From Alphaproteobacteria bacterium (GTDB lineage: Bacteria; Pseudomonadota; Alphaproteobacteria; Bin95), in assembly GCA_963665325.3 (NCBI GenBank), contig CAXXWS020000004.1, forward strand, positions 64,001 to 128,000: a DNA stretch of 64,000 bases, in the 5' to 3' direction. Positions 38,543 through 51,258 of this stretch are shown here, piece by piece. The notes under the pieces were generated by a model, which did not search any database, was not told the origin of the DNA, and saw only the letters and a program-made list of their open reading frames with translations. Within the stretch, counting starts at the first letter, position 1; each line of letters begins with the position of its first letter. Both the position numbers and the translations under genes were made by a program.

Positions 38543-38652
38543 TGTTAACGGCGGCGGAATAATGCTCCACAGGAAGCGCCCGGTTGGTCGGGTCGCGGCG
38601 GCGCAAAATTGCGCCAGTGATGCCCCCTTGTCCGTTTGGTCGGGGGCGGGGG

Positions 38653-40155
38653 ATGTATGGGGTGGAGCTTTACGCAGCGGTACGACTTGCGGTTGTCGAG
38701 GAGGGTCTGAGCCATCATGAGGCCGGTCGGCGGTTCGGGATCGACCGTCGCACGGTGAAGAAGATGCTGAGCTATTCGGCGCCGCCGGGCTATCGGCGCC
38801 GGAAGCCGGTGCGTCGTCCGAAGCTGGACGGGTTCACCGGGATCGTCGATGCGATCCTGGAGGGGGACCGGGCGCCGGACGTGCCGGTCAAGCAGCGGCA
38901 CACGGCGCACCGGATTTTCGAACGGCTGCGTGACGAGCACGGGTTCACGGGCGGCTACACCATCGTGAAGGACTATGTGCGCTCGCGGCGGCAGTCGTCG
39001 CGCGAGGCCTTCGTGCCGCTGCATCATCCGCCGGGCCATGCGCAGGTCGACTTCGGCGAGGCGGTGGTCGAGGTCGGCGGGCGGCGCGAGAAGGTGGCTG
39101 TCTTCTGCCTGATCCTGCCGCATAGCGACCTGTGGTTCGTGAAGGCCTATCCGAAGGAGACGACGGAGGCGTTCCTGGACGGCCATGTCAGCGCCTTCGC
39201 CTTCCTCGGCGGGGTTCCGCTTTCGGTGCTTTACGACAACACGACCCTGGCAGTGGCGCGGATCCTGGGCGACGGCACGCGTCAGCGCACGCGGGCGTTC
39301 ACGCCTCTGCAGTCGCACTACCTGTTCCGCGACCGCTTCGGTCGTCCCGGCAAGGGCAACGACAAGGGCAAGGTGGAGGCGCTGGTGAAGACGGCGCGGC
39401 GCAAGTTCATGGTGCCGATCCCAAAGGTGCCCGATCTGGATGTTCTGAACGAGCGGCTTCTGGCGCGCTGCCTGGAGCGTCTCGACGCGCTGCAGCAGAG
39501 CGCGCAGGCGGCGGCGTTGCTCGCCGATCTCGACACCCTGCGCGATCTTCCGGGCGCGCCCTTCGAGGCGTGCGAGCATGTGCCGGGCCGCGTGTCCTCG
39601 ACGGCGCTGGTGCGCTACCGGTCGGTGGACTACTCGGCCCCGGCGGTGCACGCCCACAAGAAGGTGACGATCAAGGGCTATGTCGACCGGGTCGAGATCG
39701 CGCTCGGCGCCGGGATCGTCGCCCGCCACCGGCGTTCCTATGTCCGCGGCGACGTCGTTTACGACCCGCTGCACTATCTCTCGCTGCTGGAGAAGAAGCC
39801 GGGGGCGCTGGACCAGGCGGCGCCGTTGCGCGGCTGGAAGCTCGATCCAGCCTTCGACGCGTTGCGCCGCCTGCTCGAGGCGCGCTTCGGGCCGCGCGGC
39901 AAGCGGGACTACATCCAGACCCTGCGCCTGCTGGAGGACTTTCCGGAGCGCCAGGTGACGGCCGCGGTGCGGGACGCGGTGGCGCGCCGGCTGGTCGGCT
40001 TCGATGCCGTCAAGCACCTGCTGCTGGCGCGCATCGAGAAGCGTCCGGCCCATCTCGACCTGACGCGCTACCCGCACCTGCCGCAGCCCCTCGTCGCCGC
40101 CACCCGGGCCGGCGACTATGCCTCCCTGCTGGCCGGAGGGGGCAGTCGTGGCTGA
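38653..40155 (+). CDS. istA: IS21 transposase IstA
   Basis: N-terminal HTH, AQVDFG, YDN, KGKVE, YSAP. Confidence 0.94.
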   Translation: MYGVELYAAVRLAVVEEGLSHHEAGRRFGIDRRTVKKMLSYSAPPGYRRRKPVRRPKLDGFTGIVDAILEGDRAPDVPVKQRHTAHRIFERLRDEHGFTGGYTIVKDYVRSRRQSSREAFVPLHHPPGHAQVDFGEAVVEVGGRREKVAVFCLILPHSDLWFVKAYPKETTEAFLDGHVSAFAFLGGVPLSVLYDNTTLAVARILGDGTRQRTRAFTPLQSHYLFRDRFGRPGKGNDKGKVEALVKTARRKFMVPIPKVPDLDVLNERLLARCLERLDALQQSAQAAALLADLDTLRDLPGAPFEACEHVPGRVSSTALVRYRSVDYSAPAVHAHKKVTIKGYVDRVEIALGAGIVARHRRSYVRGDVVYDPLHYLSLLEKKPGALDQAAPLRGWKLDPAFDALRRLLEARFGPRGKRDYIQTLRLLEDFPERQVTAAVRDAVARRLVGFDAVKHLLLARIEKRPAHLDLTRYPHLPQPLVAATRAGDYASLLAGGGSRG

Positions 40156-40912
40156 GGCGCCCCGCATCCTGCTCGAACACCACCTGAAGAAGCTCAAGCT
40201 GCCGACCGTCCTGCGGGAATACGAGAAGCTGGCCCGCCAGTGCGCGGCCGAGGGGCTGGATCATGTGCAGTTCCTCGCCCGGCTGGTGGAGATGGAGACG
40301 ATCGACCGCGAGCGCCGCCTGGTCGAGCGCCGCATCCGGCAGGCCAGGTTCCCGGTCGTCAAGCAGCTCGAGAGCTTCGACTTCAAGGCCATCCCCAGCC
40401 TCAACAAGATGCTGGTGCTCGACCTCGCGCGCGGCGATTACATCGAGCGGCGCGAGAACGCGATCCTGCTCGGCCCGAGCGGTGTGGGGAAGACGCACAT
40501 CGCTCTGGCCCTCGGCCTCGCCGCCTGCCAGAAGGGCCTCGCCGTGCGCTTCACCACCGCCTCCCAGCTGGTCCACGAGATGATCGAGGCGCGCGACGAG
40601 AAGAGGCTGCTCCGCCTCCAGGACCAGCTCGCCAGGGTCAGTCTGCTGATCGTCGACGAACTCGGATACGTGCCCCTCTCGCAGAGCGGAAGCGAGCTGC
40701 TGTTCGACATCTTCAGCCGCCGCTACGAAAACGGCGCCACAATCGTCACCTCGAACCTGCCCTTCCAGGAATGGACCTCGGTCTTCGCCAGCGAGCGGCT
40801 CACCGGCGCGCTGCTCGACCGCATCACCCACCATGTCCACATCCTGGAGATGAACGGCGAAAGCTACAGGCTCAAGCAAAGCCGGTCGCGACGACGGCCC
40901 CCCTCCGAATAA
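40148..40912 (+). CDS. istB: IS21 helper AAA+ ATPase IstB
   Basis: GPSGVGKTH, LLIVDELGY, TSN..F.EW, LLDRITHH, GESYR. Confidence 0.96.
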   Translation: MAEAPRILLEHHLKKLKLPTVLREYEKLARQCAAEGLDHVQFLARLVEMETIDRERRLVERRIRQARFPVVKQLESFDFKAIPSLNKMLVLDLARGDYIERRENAILLGPSGVGKTHIALALGLAACQKGLAVRFTTASQLVHEMIEARDEKRLLRLQDQLARVSLLIVDELGYVPLSQSGSELLFDIFSRRYENGATIVTSNLPFQEWTSVFASERLTGALLDRITHHVHILEMNGESYRLKQSRSRRRPPSE

Positions 40913-41088
40913 CCCGCTTGCTCCCATAGACCACAGGTCCCTCCCACGCGCGGGTCGACGCCAGCCACATGGAGGGCGCGCCGCCCCGCGCGCGGGGCCC
41001 TCCCATGGACTATGGGGACAAGCTACCGCCAAGCCCGTGGTACATCTTTACGCCGCCCCGCCGGTACATTTTTGCTCCGCCGTTGACA

Positions 41089-41397
41089 CATCGACGATCC
41101 CGGTGAACCCGTCCAGCTTCGGACGACGCACCGGCTTCCGGCGCCGATAGCCCGGCGGCGCCGAATAGCTCAGCATCTTCTTCACCGTGCGACGGTCGAT
41201 CCCGAACCGCCGACCGGCCTCATGATGGCTCAGACCCTCCTCGACAACCGCAAGTCGTACCGCTGCGTAAAGCTCCACCCCATACATCCCCCGCCCCCGA
41301 CCAAACGGACAAGGGGGCATCACTGGCGCAATTTTGCGCCGCCGCGACCCGACCAACCGGGCGCTTCCTGTGGAGCATTATTCCGCCGCCGTTAACA
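41089..41397 (-). mobile_element. inverted 309-bp copy of the IS21 left end (truncated istA)
   Basis: Reverse complement of 38543-38851. Ends ...GCCGCCGTTAACA at 41397 and abuts the right end of the full copy. Confidence 0.93.
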
Positions 41398-46131: not shown

Positions 46132-47226
46132 ATGTCCAGCGGTCCTATCGGAGTCGGCATCGTAGGCGCAGGCCGCATCTCCGATCTGCACGCCATCGAG
46201 TATCTGGCCAACCCGCAAGCGCGGATCGTGGCGCTTTGCGATGTCGACGCGGCGCGCGCGGCGGAGCGGGCGGCGGCCTGGGGCCTTAATGACGTCGCCA
46301 TCGACGATGACATGGACTCCCTGCTAGCCCGTCCGGACGTGGATCTTGTCGAGATCCTGCTGCCCCATCATCTGCATCTGGGATCGGCGCTGAAGGCCGT
46401 CGATGCCGGTAAGATCGTCTCGCTCCAGAAGCCCATGTGCATTTCGCTTGAGGAGGCCGACCGGCTTGTCGCCGCCGCCGAAGCCTCGGACCGCCCGTTC
46501 AAGGTGTTCGAAAACTTCCTGTTCTACCCCCCTGTCGTCCGGGCTCGGGAGTTGATCGCCGAGGGCGCGATCGGCACACCCCTCGCCATCCGCATCAAGA
46601 GCAATCCGGGGCGGAGCGCCACCGCCTGGGACGTGCCGGAAAGCGCCATCGCGTGGCGCCAGCGGCCCGAGCAGTCCGGCGGCGGGCCGCTGGTGTTCGA
46701 CGACGGCCACCACAAGTTCGCCCTCGCCTGGCACTTCATGGGCGAGCCCGAGGAGGTCCACGCCTTCATCGGGCAGACCGAAACGACGAACCGCCGGGAG
46801 CTGTTGGATGCGCCATCGATCGTGTCGTTCCGCTTTCCCTGCAATCGCATCGGCAACCTGGAGATCGTCTATTCGCAGGAACTGGAAATCGCAACCCGGC
46901 ACTATGCTCAGGACGACCGCGTGGAGATCACCGGCAGCAAGGGCGTGATCTGGTTGAACGGCGGCCATGGGCGCCTGGGCGACGCGGCACCGCTGGCGTT
47001 ATACCGGGACGGCACTCTCACCGAGTTCCGCGACCTGGAGACCGGCTGGGAGCAGAGCTTTGTGCTGTCCACCCGCCACTTTCTGGAGGTCGTGTTCGAG
47101 GGTGGGCGTCCGGTGCTGACCGCGCGCGAGGGCCGGCAGGTCCTGCGCTTCGCACTCGCCGCCTTGGAGTCTGCCCGGAAGGGCAGGCCGGTGCCGGTCG
47201 GGGCGGATGGAGGATCGAGCGCATGA
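46132..47226 (+). CDS. Gfo/Idh/MocA-family oxidoreductase
   Basis: VGIVGAGRI, PHHLH, QKP (EKP variant), GGG...D.G.H. Confidence 0.9.
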   Translation: MSSGPIGVGIVGAGRISDLHAIEYLANPQARIVALCDVDAARAAERAAAWGLNDVAIDDDMDSLLARPDVDLVEILLPHHLHLGSALKAVDAGKIVSLQKPMCISLEEADRLVAAAEASDRPFKVFENFLFYPPVVRARELIAEGAIGTPLAIRIKSNPGRSATAWDVPESAIAWRQRPEQSGGGPLVFDDGHHKFALAWHFMGEPEEVHAFIGQTETTNRRELLDAPSIVSFRFPCNRIGNLEIVYSQELEIATRHYAQDDRVEITGSKGVIWLNGGHGRLGDAAPLALYRDGTLTEFRDLETGWEQSFVLSTRHFLEVVFEGGRPVLTAREGRQVLRFALAALESARKGRPVPVGADGGSSA

Positions 47227-49124
47227 GGAACGCCACTGGCGTGTCCGGATCGCTGCCGTCGTCGATGGACGGGAGAGCGGCCTGGCTTGCCGCGGCCGGC
47301 GGCCTGAACGCGGCCATCGATGCCGGGGGGCTTGGCGAACCGGTTGCCCTCCCTCTTGCCGAGGCGTTGGTGCTGGGCCTGATGCGTCAGGGGGTGACGA
47401 AGTATCTCGCGATCTTCGGACACGGCTCAACCGCGATCGGGGAGGTGTTGCGGGTTTACCAAGCCCACGGTCTGGTCCGATGCTGGCAGTTCCGCAACGA
47501 GGTCGCGATGGCGCACGCCGGAACTGCACTCCGCTGGGTGTACGGAGAGCCGTCCGCAGTGGTCACGTCCATCGGGCCGGGAGCGATGCAGGCCATGGCC
47601 GGATCGCTGGCGGCGGCTTCCAACGGCGTCGGCGTCTATCACCTCTACGGCGACGAGACCACTCACGGCGAAGGCTACAACATGCAGCAGGTGCCCAAGC
47701 CGGCACAGGGGCTTTTCGGGCAGATAACCGCGCTGATGGGCGAGTCCTGGACCCTGCATAGTCCCGGCGGGCTGCGGGCCGCGTTGCGCCGGGGCGCGAT
47801 GACCGTGTTCCACCCGTGGAAGGCCGGTCCGTTCTACCTGAACCTGCCGCTCAACACCCAGCCCGCAAAGACCTTGATCCGGCTCGATACCCTGCCGGTA
47901 GCTCCCGTGTTCTCCCCTGCCGCACCCGCCGGCGAGGATGCATACGCCGAGGGCGCAGCGCTCATCGCCGGCGCCCGGCGTGTCGCGGTCAAGGTCGGCG
48001 GAGGGGCGCGGTCCTTTGCCCGCGCGATCCGGGAGTTCGCGGAGTTGGCGGGCGCAGCGGTGGTGCTCAGCCCCGGCTCGACCGGGGTGATGCCCGACGA
48101 CCACCCGCAGAACCTGCACGTCGGTGGCTCCAAGGGAACCATCAGCGGCAATTTCGCGATGGAGGAGGCGGACCTGCTGGTGGTCATCGGCAGCCGGGCG
48201 GTGTGCCAGAGCGATTGCTCGGGGACGGGATGGCCGAAGGTCTGCCACGTCGTCAACATCAACGCCGATCCGGAGGACGTCCAGCACTACAACCGCACCT
48301 CTGCGCTGTGCGGTGATGCCGGAGCGGTACTGGAACGCCTGAACGACGTGCTGCGCCGCAATTATCCGCAGGCGCCCGCGAGCAAGCGGGAGTGGCTCGA
48401 CGCCTGCGCCGCAAAAAAAGCCGAGTGGCGGGCGTTCAGGGTCACGCAGCTCGATGCCGCCCCTCCCGTTGACACGGTCTGGCAGCGGGCGGTGTTGACC
48501 CAGCCCCAGGCGATCACGGTCACCGCAGCGTTCTGCAAGGCGCGGGGCGCCGTCAAGTTCTTCGACGCCGGCGACGTGCAGGCCAATGGCTTCCAGATCA
48601 TCGAGGACGACTCGCCATTCGAGACCTTTACCGAAGCCGGTGCGTCCTACATGGGGTTCTCGGTCTCGGCCCTGCTCGCCGGTGCGCTGGCCGAGAACGG
48701 GCGCTATGCCGTCGCCTTCACCGGCGACGGTTCGTTCACGATGAACCCTCAGGTCCTGATCGACGGCGTGGAGCACGGCGCTCGGGGCGCCATTGTCCTG
48801 TTCGACAACCGCCGCATGGGCGCGATCAGCCAGTTGCAGCAAGTGCAGTACGGAGCGGACTTCCGCACCTCGGACTCCGTGTCGGTGGACTACGTGCAAA
48901 TGGCGGCATCGGTCGCGGGAGTGAAGGCGCTGTCGGGAGGTTTCGATCCGTCCTCCCTGACCGCAGCGCTAGAAGAAGCGTTTGATTACGATGGCCTCAG
49001 CCTCATCCATGTCCCAGTCTATTTCGGGGACGACCAGCAGGGTGGCATGGGCGCCTACGGGCGTTGGAATGTCGGGAACTGGTGTGACGACGTACAGGAC
49101 CGCTACGTGCGTACATTGATTTGA
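47223..49124 (+). CDS. thiamine-diphosphate enzyme, IolD-like ring-cleaving acylhydrolase
   Basis: AIFGHG, NEVAMAHA, TSIGPGA, TPP motif GDGSF...DN. ATGA overlap with the Gfo gene. Confidence 0.8.
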   Translation: MRNATGVSGSLPSSMDGRAAWLAAAGGLNAAIDAGGLGEPVALPLAEALVLGLMRQGVTKYLAIFGHGSTAIGEVLRVYQAHGLVRCWQFRNEVAMAHAGTALRWVYGEPSAVVTSIGPGAMQAMAGSLAAASNGVGVYHLYGDETTHGEGYNMQQVPKPAQGLFGQITALMGESWTLHSPGGLRAALRRGAMTVFHPWKAGPFYLNLPLNTQPAKTLIRLDTLPVAPVFSPAAPAGEDAYAEGAALIAGARRVAVKVGGGARSFARAIREFAELAGAAVVLSPGSTGVMPDDHPQNLHVGGSKGTISGNFAMEEADLLVVIGSRAVCQSDCSGTGWPKVCHVVNINADPEDVQHYNRTSALCGDAGAVLERLNDVLRRNYPQAPASKREWLDACAAKKAEWRAFRVTQLDAAPPVDTVWQRAVLTQPQAITVTAAFCKARGAVKFFDAGDVQANGFQIIEDDSPFETFTEAGASYMGFSVSALLAGALAENGRYAVAFTGDGSFTMNPQVLIDGVEHGARGAIVLFDNRRMGAISQLQQVQYGADFRTSDSVSVDYVQMAASVAGVKALSGGFDPSSLTAALEEAFDYDGLSLIHVPVYFGDDQQGGMGAYGRWNVGNWCDDVQDRYVRTLI

Positions 49125-49359
49125 CCTTGCCCGCAAAAGTGGAGCGAGCCCGGCTTCCGCCACCGGTAGCCCGGCGGCGCCGAATAGCTCAGCATCTTCT
49201 TCACCGTCCGGCGGTCGATCCCGAACCGCCGCATATAGCTCCACGCCATACATCTCCCGCCCCGCGCCGATACCGACAAGGAGCTACAGATGGCGCAATT
49301 TCGCACCGCCGCGACCGGACCGCCCGGTCGCTACTCGTGGAGGATCTGTGGACGCCTCC

Positions 49360-49639
49360 ATTGGTGCAAGCCTTTACTTCGGACAGTTCGGGTCATGCGG
49401 TCAGGTGCAGTCATCTGTCCGGCCTCGTGGTGCGGCTGGATTGACGCCGCAGGCCTGTATGGAGATGCGCGGACCGGATCCAAGATCATTATTGCGGGCT
49501 TGAGTGGCCCTTTATTGCGGGCTTGAGTGGCCCTTGCTCCACGACTGGTTTTTCCGGTCCCGTCTCGATTGACCGTTTGCCCTTACTCGTCCTCCGACCT
49601 GCTCACACCCCCGACGGCTTCCTGCTGTTCGCCTCTTGC
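49360..49639 (-). ncRNA. predicted bridge/seek RNA of the IS1111-type element
   Basis: The non-coding 3' region contains TCGTGGAGCA and AATAATG (both strands of the IS21 target) and ACAGATGA and CTCCAT (both strands of the predicted circle junction). Exact RNA ends are unknown. Confidence 0.72.
49489..49534 (+). repeat. 23-bp tandem duplication in the IS110 non-coding region
   Basis: TTATTGCGGGCTTGAGTGGCCCT at 49489-49511 and 49512-49534. Confidence 0.95.
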
Positions 49640-50662
49640 TCAGGCTGCAGCAGGAGCCCGGTAGTCCTCCTTCTTCGTTGTCAGCGCCCAGATGATGCGC
49701 GCAATCCGGTTGGCCAGCGCCACGGCGACCAGCTTGCGCGGCTTGCGCGCCAGCATCCGGGCCAGCCAGGGGTCCGTCGTCCGGCCACGCCGTACGGCCC
49801 AGCTGACGACAGCCATGGCGCCCGAGATCAGCAATCGTCTCAGATCGCGCTGGCCCATCTTCGATATCCTGCCGAGCCGCGGTTTGCCGCCGGTCGTGTG
49901 CTGGCGCGGCACCAGTCCAAGCCAGGCGGCAAAGTCGCGGCCGCGACGGAAGCTCTCCATCGGCGGCGCGAAGGCCTGGACCGCCATCGCGCCGATCGGC
50001 CCGATCCCCGGGATCGTCATCAGACGCGCCGCCTCTTCGTCCTGACGCGCGCTGGCGCGGATCTCCTTTTCCAACCCGCCAATCTTCTCATCGAGATCGG
50101 CGATCCGGTCGAGTAAAAGGCCGCCCAACCTGCGCACCGCGCCCGGCAGGCTCAATCCCGGATCATCGAGGGCTGATGCCAGCCGACCGACATGAGCCGG
50201 ACCCTGCGGCGCCACGACACCGAACTCCGACAAATGGCCGCGTAGCGCATTGATCGTCTGCGTGCGCTGGCGCACCAGGAGGTCGCGCGTATGAAACAAC
50301 ATTGCCCTGGCCTGCTGCTCTTCCGTCTTCACTGCCACAAAGCGCATGGTCGGGCGCTGCGCCGCCTCGCAGATCGCCTCCGCGTCCGCAGCGTCGTTCT
50401 TGTGCCGCTTCACATACGGCTTCACGTAAACCGGCGGGACCAGCCTCACGTCGTGGCCGAACCGCATCATCTCCCGGCCCCAATTGTGAGCGCTCGCGCA
50501 AGCCTCCATCGCCACCGTGCAGCGCGGCTGCGAGGCGACGAAGTCGAGCAGCTTTCCCCGGCTCAACTTCCGGCGAAACGCCACCGATCCATCCGACCGA
50601 GCTCCATGAACCTGAAAGCTGCGCTTCGCCAGATCGATCCCGATGATGCTAACCTCTTCCAT
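49640..50662 (-). CDS. IS110-family DEDD recombinase/transposase
   Basis: GIDLAK, AMEAC, KNDAADAEAI, IPGIGP, AWLGLVP.Q.TTGGK...G.ISK.G, VALAN..ARI.WA. Confidence 0.95.
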   Translation of the reverse strand: MEEVSIIGIDLAKRSFQVHGARSDGSVAFRRKLSRGKLLDFVASQPRCTVAMEACASAHNWGREMMRFGHDVRLVPPVYVKPYVKRHKNDAADAEAICEAAQRPTMRFVAVKTEEQQARAMLFHTRDLLVRQRTQTINALRGHLSEFGVVAPQGPAHVGRLASALDDPGLSLPGAVRRLGGLLLDRIADLDEKIGGLEKEIRASARQDEEAARLMTIPGIGPIGAMAVQAFAPPMESFRRGRDFAAWLGLVPRQHTTGGKPRLGRISKMGQRDLRRLLISGAMAVVSWAVRRGRTTDPWLARMLARKPRKLVAVALANRIARIIWALTTKKEDYRAPAAA

Positions 50663-50844
50663 GGATGCCTCCTCCTTCAGGGGGTTCGAATGCACCACCA
50701 CCTTGGCACATCGCGATGCCGGCGGGAGGAGGCGTCCACTCCATCATTATTCCGCCGCCGTTAACACCATGATCCCGCGCTTCATTCATGCCACCTCACG
50801 CCGCCGGCAACACCGGTATGGTTCAGTTGCGTTGCGCCAAGGCT

Positions 50845-51135
50845 TCAGACAGCGGCAATCTCGACCTCGACGCTGTGGACGCAGGTGCTCTCGCCCATGT
50901 CCGACTTGATGCTGGGGTTGAGGACATTGACGTTGGCGCGCGTGCCTTCCTGACGCGGCCAGCGGCCCTTGGGGCTGAGCGCAACGCCTTGCGGGATGGA
51001 CCCGGCAACCGCCAGCGCAAGCTCCAGGCTGCCGGTCTCGTTGCTGAGCCGCACCTGCTGCCCTTCGGTCAAGCCGCGAGCCGCCGCGTCCTCCGGATGC
51101 AGCGCCACCGTCGCTTCGCCCATGAGTTCGCCGAC
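50845..51135 (-). pseudogene. C-terminal fragment of a molybdopterin oxidoreductase (dinucleotide-binding domain)
   Basis: LHPEDAAARGL..G..VRL.N..G.......V...I..GV...KG.W......VN.L.....SDMG. No N-terminal domains present. Confidence 0.75.
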
Positions 51136-51258
51136 GCGCCGATCGTTGGCATGTCCGGCGTAGCTGCGGGTTGTGGTAGCTCGCCAGCGATGACAGTTGG
51201 GTTAGATGTATCTGGTTGTGCCGTCCGATTGTGTTGCCGGTCGTCCTGCCAGTTCCAT

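Follow-up and report, generated by a model that had tools for sequence, protein, structure and literature searches.

In a window of 64,000 nucleotides (nt) of alphaproteobacterial DNA (GenBank assembly GCA_963665325.3, contig CAXXWS020000004.1, positions 64,001 to 128,000), to which all coordinates below refer unless a contig is named, the stretch 49335-50766 holds an insertion sequence (IS) that splits the left end of an IS21-family element. Our data indicate that this insertion sequence is very probably an IS1111-group element with a bridge/seek RNA programmed to L1, the first direct repeat of IS21-family left ends, that it recombines at a TG core, and that it stands within a clade directed at L1 or at the second repeat, L2. 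The minus strand is the transposase strand.

The element and its predicted guide RNA

In the register of its family, the element (labelled ISA) extends over 1400 bp at 49345-50744 on the minus strand, from a left 5-nt extension ATGGA with its subterminal repeat to a right subterminal repeat followed by AGA. The two 12-nt arms of this subterminal inverted repeat, at 49348-49359 (right end) and 50728-50739 (left end), are 100% complementary, and the only long reading frame within the element is an intact transposase gene of 340 amino acids (aa; 49640-50662, minus strand). Its product matches DEDD_Tnp_IS110 (PF01548, 2.4e-15) and, in its C-terminal part, Transposase_20 (PF02371, 4.3e-23) of Pfam, scores 327 bits (cut-off 140) against the NCBIfam model NF033542, 'IS110 family RNA-guided transposase', and has structurally solved (PDB) relatives in ISCro4 (E 1.2e-12) and IS621 (E 9.8e-10). 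The stretches bearing the D/E/D/D residues align to the ISCro4 transposase, and the translation contains the motif GLVPRQHTTG, the TTG of which aligns with ESG of ISCro4. Non-coding sequence amounts to 295 nt downstream of the gene (49345-49639) versus 82 nt upstream (50663-50744). IS1111-group members are described as having a transposase of 330-350 aa, a GL-P----S/TG motif and a long non-coding region 3' of the gene (PMC11187229). Because of the domain matches, the 12-nt subterminal repeats, the downstream non-coding region and the 340-aa protein, the element is by its sequence a member of the IS1111 group within the IS110 family. An earlier reading of the window without database searches (the original prediction) had proposed just this, together with a bridge/seek RNA encoded downstream of the gene.

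A scan for relatives, with one genome per species, found 399 among 501 candidate stretches, the best 80 of which were kept. Adding the window copy and a relative present three times within the same genome gives a set of 84, in 77 of which both ends were found (the rows without located ends are L020, L042, L048, L050, L056, L085 and L088; L022 and L078, the ends of which were judged to be mis-called, were dropped thereafter). The alignment of non-coding regions, A1, comprises 48 of 49 distinct sequences, L038 (with the same flanks as L034) having been lost in de-duplication.

The consensus fold of A1, which we extended by four manually added pairs, supports three parts of a predicted RNA on the minus strand, i.e. 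the outer stem of a target loop together with CCAG/TTGG, an inner hairpin, and a second hairpin belonging to a donor loop. The outer stem joins GGACCGGA (49553-49560) to TCCGGTCC (49471-49478) in helix 1 (8 pairs, 6 compensatory, 98.6% of cells paired), and the donor-loop hairpin (49421-49455) consists of helices 4 and 5, which are 97-99% paired and mostly invariant. Across all 25 pairs, 97.5% of cells are paired, whereas a shift of the partners by 1-3 columns lowers this share to 25-47%, and compensatory changes occur at 10 of the 25; neither the covariation score nor the percentage paired was reached by any of 500 shuffles, a control to be read with the caveat that the sequences are related. 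The predicted target loop is thereby strongly supported by compensatory changes. The most variable stretches of the RNA are exactly the four unpaired strands that flank the two hairpins, and it is in these unpaired loop strands of the consensus fold that the guides sit.

The original prediction had picked out four guide segments on the minus strand: TCGTGGAGCA (49535-49544), CGCAATAATG (49487-49496), CTCCAT (49459-49464) and ACAGATGA (49411-49418). They lie where it had placed them, each pair flanks an internal hairpin (49497-49534, which is duplicated, and 49421-49455) and none is buried in a stem. In the target loop, the 5' strand TCGTGGAGCA would be complementary to the top strand of core and right flank, of which it is the reverse complement; in the window copy, 8 contiguous nt of the right flank are matched before a C is met where a G is expected. 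The 3' target strand GCAATAATGATC (49484-49495) would read left flank (6 of 7 nt) and core TG on the bottom strand and continue into the first 2 nt (AT) of the element's own left end, in a handshake-like manner; in the relatives, too, this strand consists of left flank, core and the first 2-3 nt of the left end. The 3' strand of the donor loop, GGACAGATGAC (49410-49420), includes ACAGATGA, which is identical to the final 5 nt of the right end, the core TG and the first nt of the left end, and may thus read the circle junction formed by right end, core and left end. Its 5' counterpart ATCTCCATACA (49456-49466) carries CTCCAT, which is conserved and complementary to the 6 nt that begin the left end; CCATA is invariant in A1. 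All three core-reading guide strands of the window element read TG.

What makes this guide assignment firm is covariation across the family, the evidence from the single sequence being only modest. Among 39 distinct guide sets, the 5' target guide matches its own right flank with an exact run of 5.21 nt (2.78 with the flanks of others), and the 3' target guide matches 4.95 of 7 nt of its own left flank (1.76 with others); in 46 of 48 RNAs, the 3' donor guide fits its own joined ends at all 8 positions, in nine guide/donor combinations. In none of these three cases was the value reached in 10000 permutations. Both target guides, in other words, track opposite strands of their own targets on either side of the crossover, as had been proposed. 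Of the two segments assigned to the circle junction, ACAGATGA holds up in this way; CTCCAT is conserved rather than covarying. Since CTCCAT and the left end are both nearly invariant, this pairing is beyond the reach of covariation, and the segment is consistent with pairing to the left end. In dinucleotide shuffles of the 295-nt region, set against the window RNA alone, the three longest matches (9, 8 and 8 nt) were equalled one at a time in 37, 85 and 92 of 2000 cases, and jointly in 0 of 2000. The order of the target strands agrees with that published for IS1111 seekRNAs, in which the top-strand-complementary segment lies 5' and the segments overlap at the core (PMC11187229).

By analogy with published work on IS621 and IS1111 elements, the element would leave its site as a circle, one RNA would hold circle junction and target together, and DEDD/Ser-type active sites (here Thr-Gly) would exchange strands at the 2-nt core TG; the same reaction, reversed, would serve for excision.

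A side observation concerns partial matching. L018, L023, L024, L019, L021, L025 and L073 are seven copies of one element, most of them with the left-flank match GTAAC. In three of the seven (L018, L023 and L024), the right flank is unrelated to the 5' guide, a pattern reminiscent of what a 2026 preprint calls 'half-match' off-target insertion.

IS21-family left ends as the target of a clade

The outer 20 nt of the interrupted left end, i.e. L1 from its tip, lie at 50747-50766 on the minus strand and are severed by the insertion from the remainder at 49150-49342 (minus strand), which comprises the rest of L1, L2 and the start of istA and is truncated near 49150. The insertion point is thus 20 nt from the tip, within L1. 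The same genome carries a 2559-bp IS21-family element that encodes IstA (rve and Mu-transpos_C_2; NF033546 253 bits, cut-off 160) and IstB_IS21 (1.2e-76), is present in five full copies plus partial ends, and has direct repeats L1/L2 at its left and R1/R2 at its right end, all of the form CGGCG...A-rich-TG. Against this element, the remnant gives blastn identities of 77.7% over 49234-49345 and 93.9% over 49150-49231, and the flanks, once joined (50747-50766 plus 49150-49344), can be aligned through the junction to unbroken left ends at other places in the genome, at 78-94%. This bears out the proposal that the flank is an IS21 left end and the target an IS21 terminal repeat, and the target and circle-junction strings that had been reconstructed earlier are identical to those derived here. 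The host IS21-family end is a diverged remnant of about 0.2 kb, next to which comes a gene for a thiamine pyrophosphate (TPP) enzyme at 46653-49124. The window also contains, at 38543-41088, a full copy of the 2559-bp element, the right end of which abuts an inverted 309-bp left-end fragment (41089-41397) with 100% identity; the L1 sites of both copy and fragment are empty.

The closest relatives, among the best 80 of 399, are L010-L017 and L070 from several metagenome-assembled alphaproteobacteria. Their transposases are 83-85% identical to that of the window element, their cores are TG, and they sit in sites of the form CGGCG...A-rich-TG, i.e. likewise in L1 or L2 of IS21-family left ends. 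When the genome's IstA was compared by tblastn with the two flanks of each of 73 loci, seven loci matched, all in the clade of the window element; in six of these seven, IstA lies directly downstream of the right end and in the same orientation (in L010 also by Pfam). Altogether, 11 insertions of the clade could be placed. Those in L1, 20 nt from the tip, are the window copy, a remnant on contig 3, L011 and L016; those in L2 are L010, L012, L013, L014, L015, L017 and a remnant on contig 1. The two remnants are left ends of window-type elements in the window's own genome (contig 3 near 188190, in an L1 repeat, and contig 1 near 1414960, in an L2 repeat). L010, L012, L013 and L014 occupy the same L2 position in four separate IS21-type copies of one genome, the surroundings of which are unrelated outside the IS21 end (23-34% identity). 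Wherever istA is present, the insertions have its orientation, and only left IS21 ends were found occupied. The clade therefore presents repeated independent insertions at one position and in one orientation of another mobile element's terminal repeat. The 3' guide of L017 differs from that of L010 by a single letter, which is the very letter that distinguishes the site of L017.

In a tree of 48 distinct transposases, from which L069, L071 and L072 (frames below 300 aa) and the duplicates ISB1 and ISB3 were left out, the five proteins of the clade are grouped on one side of a branch, which has support 93/49 and occurs in 90% of 200 bootstrap trees. By sequence, the window element thus forms a clade with its closest relatives, and this clade has the L1 or L2 repeats at left ends of the IS21 family as its insertion sites. 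A sister element in the same genome provides a control. Three identical copies of it, 73% identical to the window element (L002-L004; contig 4 1062043-1063423, contig 3 1297238-1298618 and contig 1 1479243-1480623), occupy a palindrome resembling repetitive extragenic palindromic (REP) sequences, GGACCC-CG-GCTCGGGGGCCGGGG, of which the genome holds more than 10 empty copies, and its guides are changed so as to match this REP-like site. A third truncated left end in this genome, of the sister type, also lies in a REP-like site (contig 1 1733445-1733619).

Sister lineages use REP-like palindromes and other sites. Of 37 genomes of the same family, 12 including that of the window gave matches, and 14 of 25 new loci could be parsed; by eye none of these lies in a CGGCG...A-rich-TG repeat (their flanks were not searched for IstA), and all 14 are in REP-like or other sites. 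Among PLSDB plasmids, megablast gave four partial matches of 73-77% identity and no further copies of the element.

Several observations weigh against the programmed, IS21-directed element as we describe it. On the side of the clade, L011, L017 and L070 have no same-orientation IstA match within 1.2 kb and were placed by the repeat motif alone, L070 weakly and with just a 47-aa IstA match on the opposite strand; furthermore, the clade is only moderately supported (SH-aLRT 49), in a tree that has no root other than its midpoint. On the side of the RNA, the 5' donor strand is without covariation across relatives, a mutual-information scan for a stem closing the donor loop returned only isolated column pairs that follow clade splits, and single-sequence folding is unremarkable (z -2.1 for the window RNA, -0.6 for L010). 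Rfam 15 gave no RNA family in 48800-51200 at E <= 1, its lone match being a chance microRNA, and the share of sampled words in the RNA runs X19 and X20 is only 0.06 and 0.04. The disabling of IS21 ends is deduced from what IstA needs. Finally, the window copy is the only full copy in its genome, its right core is TC instead of TG, its target loop contains a 23-nt duplication found in this one of the 48 aligned RNAs, and eight L1 sites of the same genome are empty despite offering a TG core, 6 contiguous right-flank matches and 6 of 7 left-flank matches.

Possible effects on IS21 and the state of this copy

An important question is what such insertions mean for the IS21 element. IS21-family terminal inverted repeats are made of direct repeats L1/L2 and R1/R2, and IstA requires two complete direct repeats per end (Spinola-Amilibia et al., PMC10122671). 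An insertion that splits L1, or that parts L1 from L2, should therefore disable the end. It is plausible, if still tentative, that the clade is a dedicated hyperparasite of IS21, its guides having been re-written repeatedly for different IS21 lineages and for either L1 or L2, with each insertion disabling the IS21 copy it enters. Alternatively, IS21 ends could serve as a safe harbour or hitch-hiking site—multi-copy, dispensable and horizontally mobile—with any damage to IS21 being incidental. We regard this as a possibility of some substance, given that the targets of sister lineages include REP-like repeats along with other multi-copy sites and that the window's site lies in an already truncated IS21 remnant. 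That the insertions fall inside L1 or between L1 and L2, the very repeats which IstA needs in pairs, argues against hitch-hiking on an active IS21, since a filled end should be non-functional; the four separately filled IS21 copies of one genome also speak against a mere harbour.

A different reservation concerns the window copy itself, which could be a dead or crippled relic of one past insertion, with its movement blocked by the duplication or another lesion. The perfect tandem duplication (2 x 23 nt at 49489-49535, minus strand; Tandem Repeats Finder period 23, 2.0 copies, 100% matches) repeats the inner hairpin together with 7 nt of the 3' guide; the original prediction, which had placed segments and hairpins of this region correctly, had overlooked it. 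A single-sequence fold suggests that it alters the inner loop. Five full IS21-family copies stand unoccupied, as do the eight good L1 sites; the right core does not match, the IS21 end that hosts the copy has been truncated to a remnant, and the two left-end remnants of like elements point to past decay in this genome. On the other hand, transposase frame, both subterminal repeats and all four guide strands are intact, the transposase is full length with catalytic-type motifs that align to ISCro4, and one complete unit of hairpin and guide is left. Moreover, a low copy number with empty targets would also be expected of an element that has arrived recently or is tightly repressed, and features compatible with repression are present. 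Given the duplicated target loop, the mismatched right core, the single copy and the empty targets nearby, the window copy may be impaired, although we consider this, like the relic as a whole, less likely than not.

Two such features can be named. A scan of 49250-50850 for sigma-70 promoters gave no site in the linear element. A 14-nt inverted repeat at 50662-50675 and 50725-50738 (93% complementary) allows the left subterminal repeat, on the transposase strand, to base-pair with the start codon of the transposase gene and its ribosome-binding site, which would likely block translation of transcripts that read in from outside. Members of this family reportedly build a promoter at the circle junction, a habit with which the lack of sigma-70-like sites in the linear element fits. 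A nearly invariant GCTTGCA (in the region 49370-49376; A1 columns 219-226), about 20 nt from the right end and found in 48 of 48 RNAs, could serve as the -35 box of a promoter completed across this junction. Two terminator-like matches in 49250-50850 are both on the plus strand, one of them being the duplicated hairpin read backwards.

Read runs, in which cover was judged from contigs only and gaps carry no meaning, bear on the same copy. A contig of run X1 covers 49313-49764 with zero differences, and the duplication and the TC junction are thus also present in a short-read assembly, a support that is possibly not independent because X1 may be the source sample. The flank contigs of X1, which end at 49342 and begin at 50742, are about twice as deep as the junction contig, and one X1 contig joins 49342 to 50742 (skipping 1399). 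Contigs of run X6 join 49342 either to 50742 or to 50745, the latter skipping 1402 and giving an uninterrupted site that has a TG core. Both joined forms are absent from the genome assembly of the window; they may stem from a second allele or strain, an excision footprint or another IS21 variant.

Core register, known systems and meaning

The original prediction had set the core as AT, duplicated at 49344-49345 and 50746-50747, with the element at 49346-50745. AT is indeed the sole dinucleotide that is identical on both sides of the window copy. Its closest relatives with identical end sequences, in contrast, show TT versus AT in this register but, with a shift of one base, TG at either junction. 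Of the 77 copies, 69 have the same dinucleotide (CG or TG) at a distance of 5 nt outward from the left repeat and 3 nt outward from the right one. Empty-site comparison fixes the same register for the in-genome relative, the more than 10 empty copies of its REP-like site showing an overlap of exactly CG (a GT core, which the junctions alone had suggested for this relative, is thereby ruled out), and all three core-reading guide strands of the window element read TG. Since the AT register fails in the closest relatives and 69 of 77 copies agree on CG/TG, the core of the window element is probably TG by homology, and AT is improbable. The window copy then has TG at its left junction (50745-50746, minus strand), like L010-L017 and L070, and a mismatching TC at its right junction (49343-49344, minus strand). 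That the guide matches are due to chance or to mis-set ends, with the transposase protein alone recognizing the site, deserves practically no credit, because matches that are only nominally significant one by one do not occur jointly in the shuffles, three guide strands covary with flanks and ends, and seekRNA function has been established experimentally for IS1111 elements (PMC11187229), so that the covariation across the family in effect refutes this explanation.

The eight exceptions to the register are the window copy (TG/TC), L026 and L027 (CG/CA), L065 and L067 (CG/GG), L079 (CG/CA, beside a partial tandem copy), L022 and L078. In all the unequal-core insertions represented by the window copy, L026, L027, L065 and L067, the element's core is kept at the left junction and the deviation lies at the right; the 5' target guides of L026 and L027 themselves read the deviating CA. 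Such a pattern would possibly record an asymmetric, one-strand-first exchange of IS1111 elements in vivo, with too few cases for a test. L066 and L079 have a partial second copy of the element's right end or non-coding region directly past the right junction, which suggests a tandem or nested insertion followed by deletion.

Compared by sequence features, the window element shares with the IS1111 seekRNA elements described in PMC11187229 a DEDD transposase, the motif, subterminal repeats, a downstream non-coding region and overlapping target segments in the same order; it differs in its IS21 L1/L2 target and its duplicated target loop. Function of the seekRNA has been shown for four such elements, i.e. 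ISEc11, ISPa11, ISKpn4 and ISPst6 (Siddiquee et al. 2024, PMC11187229), and for 93% of IS1111 elements a bridge RNA has been predicted within the right end (Durrant et al. 2024, PMC11208160). With IS621 and the IS110-group bridge RNAs (PMC11208160, PMC11208158), it has in common a target and a donor internal loop (here predicted), each of which would read both strands around a 2-nt core, as well as a handshake, in which a small number of guide letters fit the partner DNA only once strands have been exchanged (Hiraizumi et al. 2024, PMC11208158). In contrast to IS621, its RNA lies 3' rather than 5' of the gene, its core is CG/TG instead of CT, its subterminal repeats are long, and the 5' donor strand does not read the core; similarity of the transposase to that of IS621 amounts only to E 1e-9, in the C-terminal half.

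The behaviour of the clade has a parallel elsewhere in the group. IS1111 members like IS4321 and IS5075 have as their target the terminal inverted repeats found in transposons of the Tn21 family, and a specific site at a fixed position inside the terminal inverted repeat of another transposable element is what the two have in common. The likeness meant here is one of behaviour. The victim of the window clade is the IS21 family with IstA/IstB, not Tn3-family transposons, different members use L1 or L2, and only left ends were found occupied. We found no published IS110/IS1111 member aimed at IS21-family ends, in a search of titles and the openings of abstracts that did not cover ISfinder or the target logos in PMC11187229 (more than 300 ISfinder elements), which may include one. 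Kind and mechanism are thus already known, whereas IS21 ends as a class of target seem to be undescribed.

RNA-guided IS110/IS1111 recombinases are being intensively studied as genome-editing tools, and their natural choices of target are only partly catalogued. Without changing the known mechanism, our data add a natural class of targets, the IstA-binding repeats of IS21-family ends, and a case of natural re-programming within a clade, where one guide letter differs between relatives in L1-type and L2-type repeats. They also add 39 guide/target pairs that fix the register of this IS1111 lineage, i.e. the CG/TG core, the 5-nt and 3-nt extensions and the core-reading strands. At the level of the genome, the clade is a natural example of an insertion sequence that homes into another one and probably inactivates it, and thus bears on the competition of mobile elements inside genomes.

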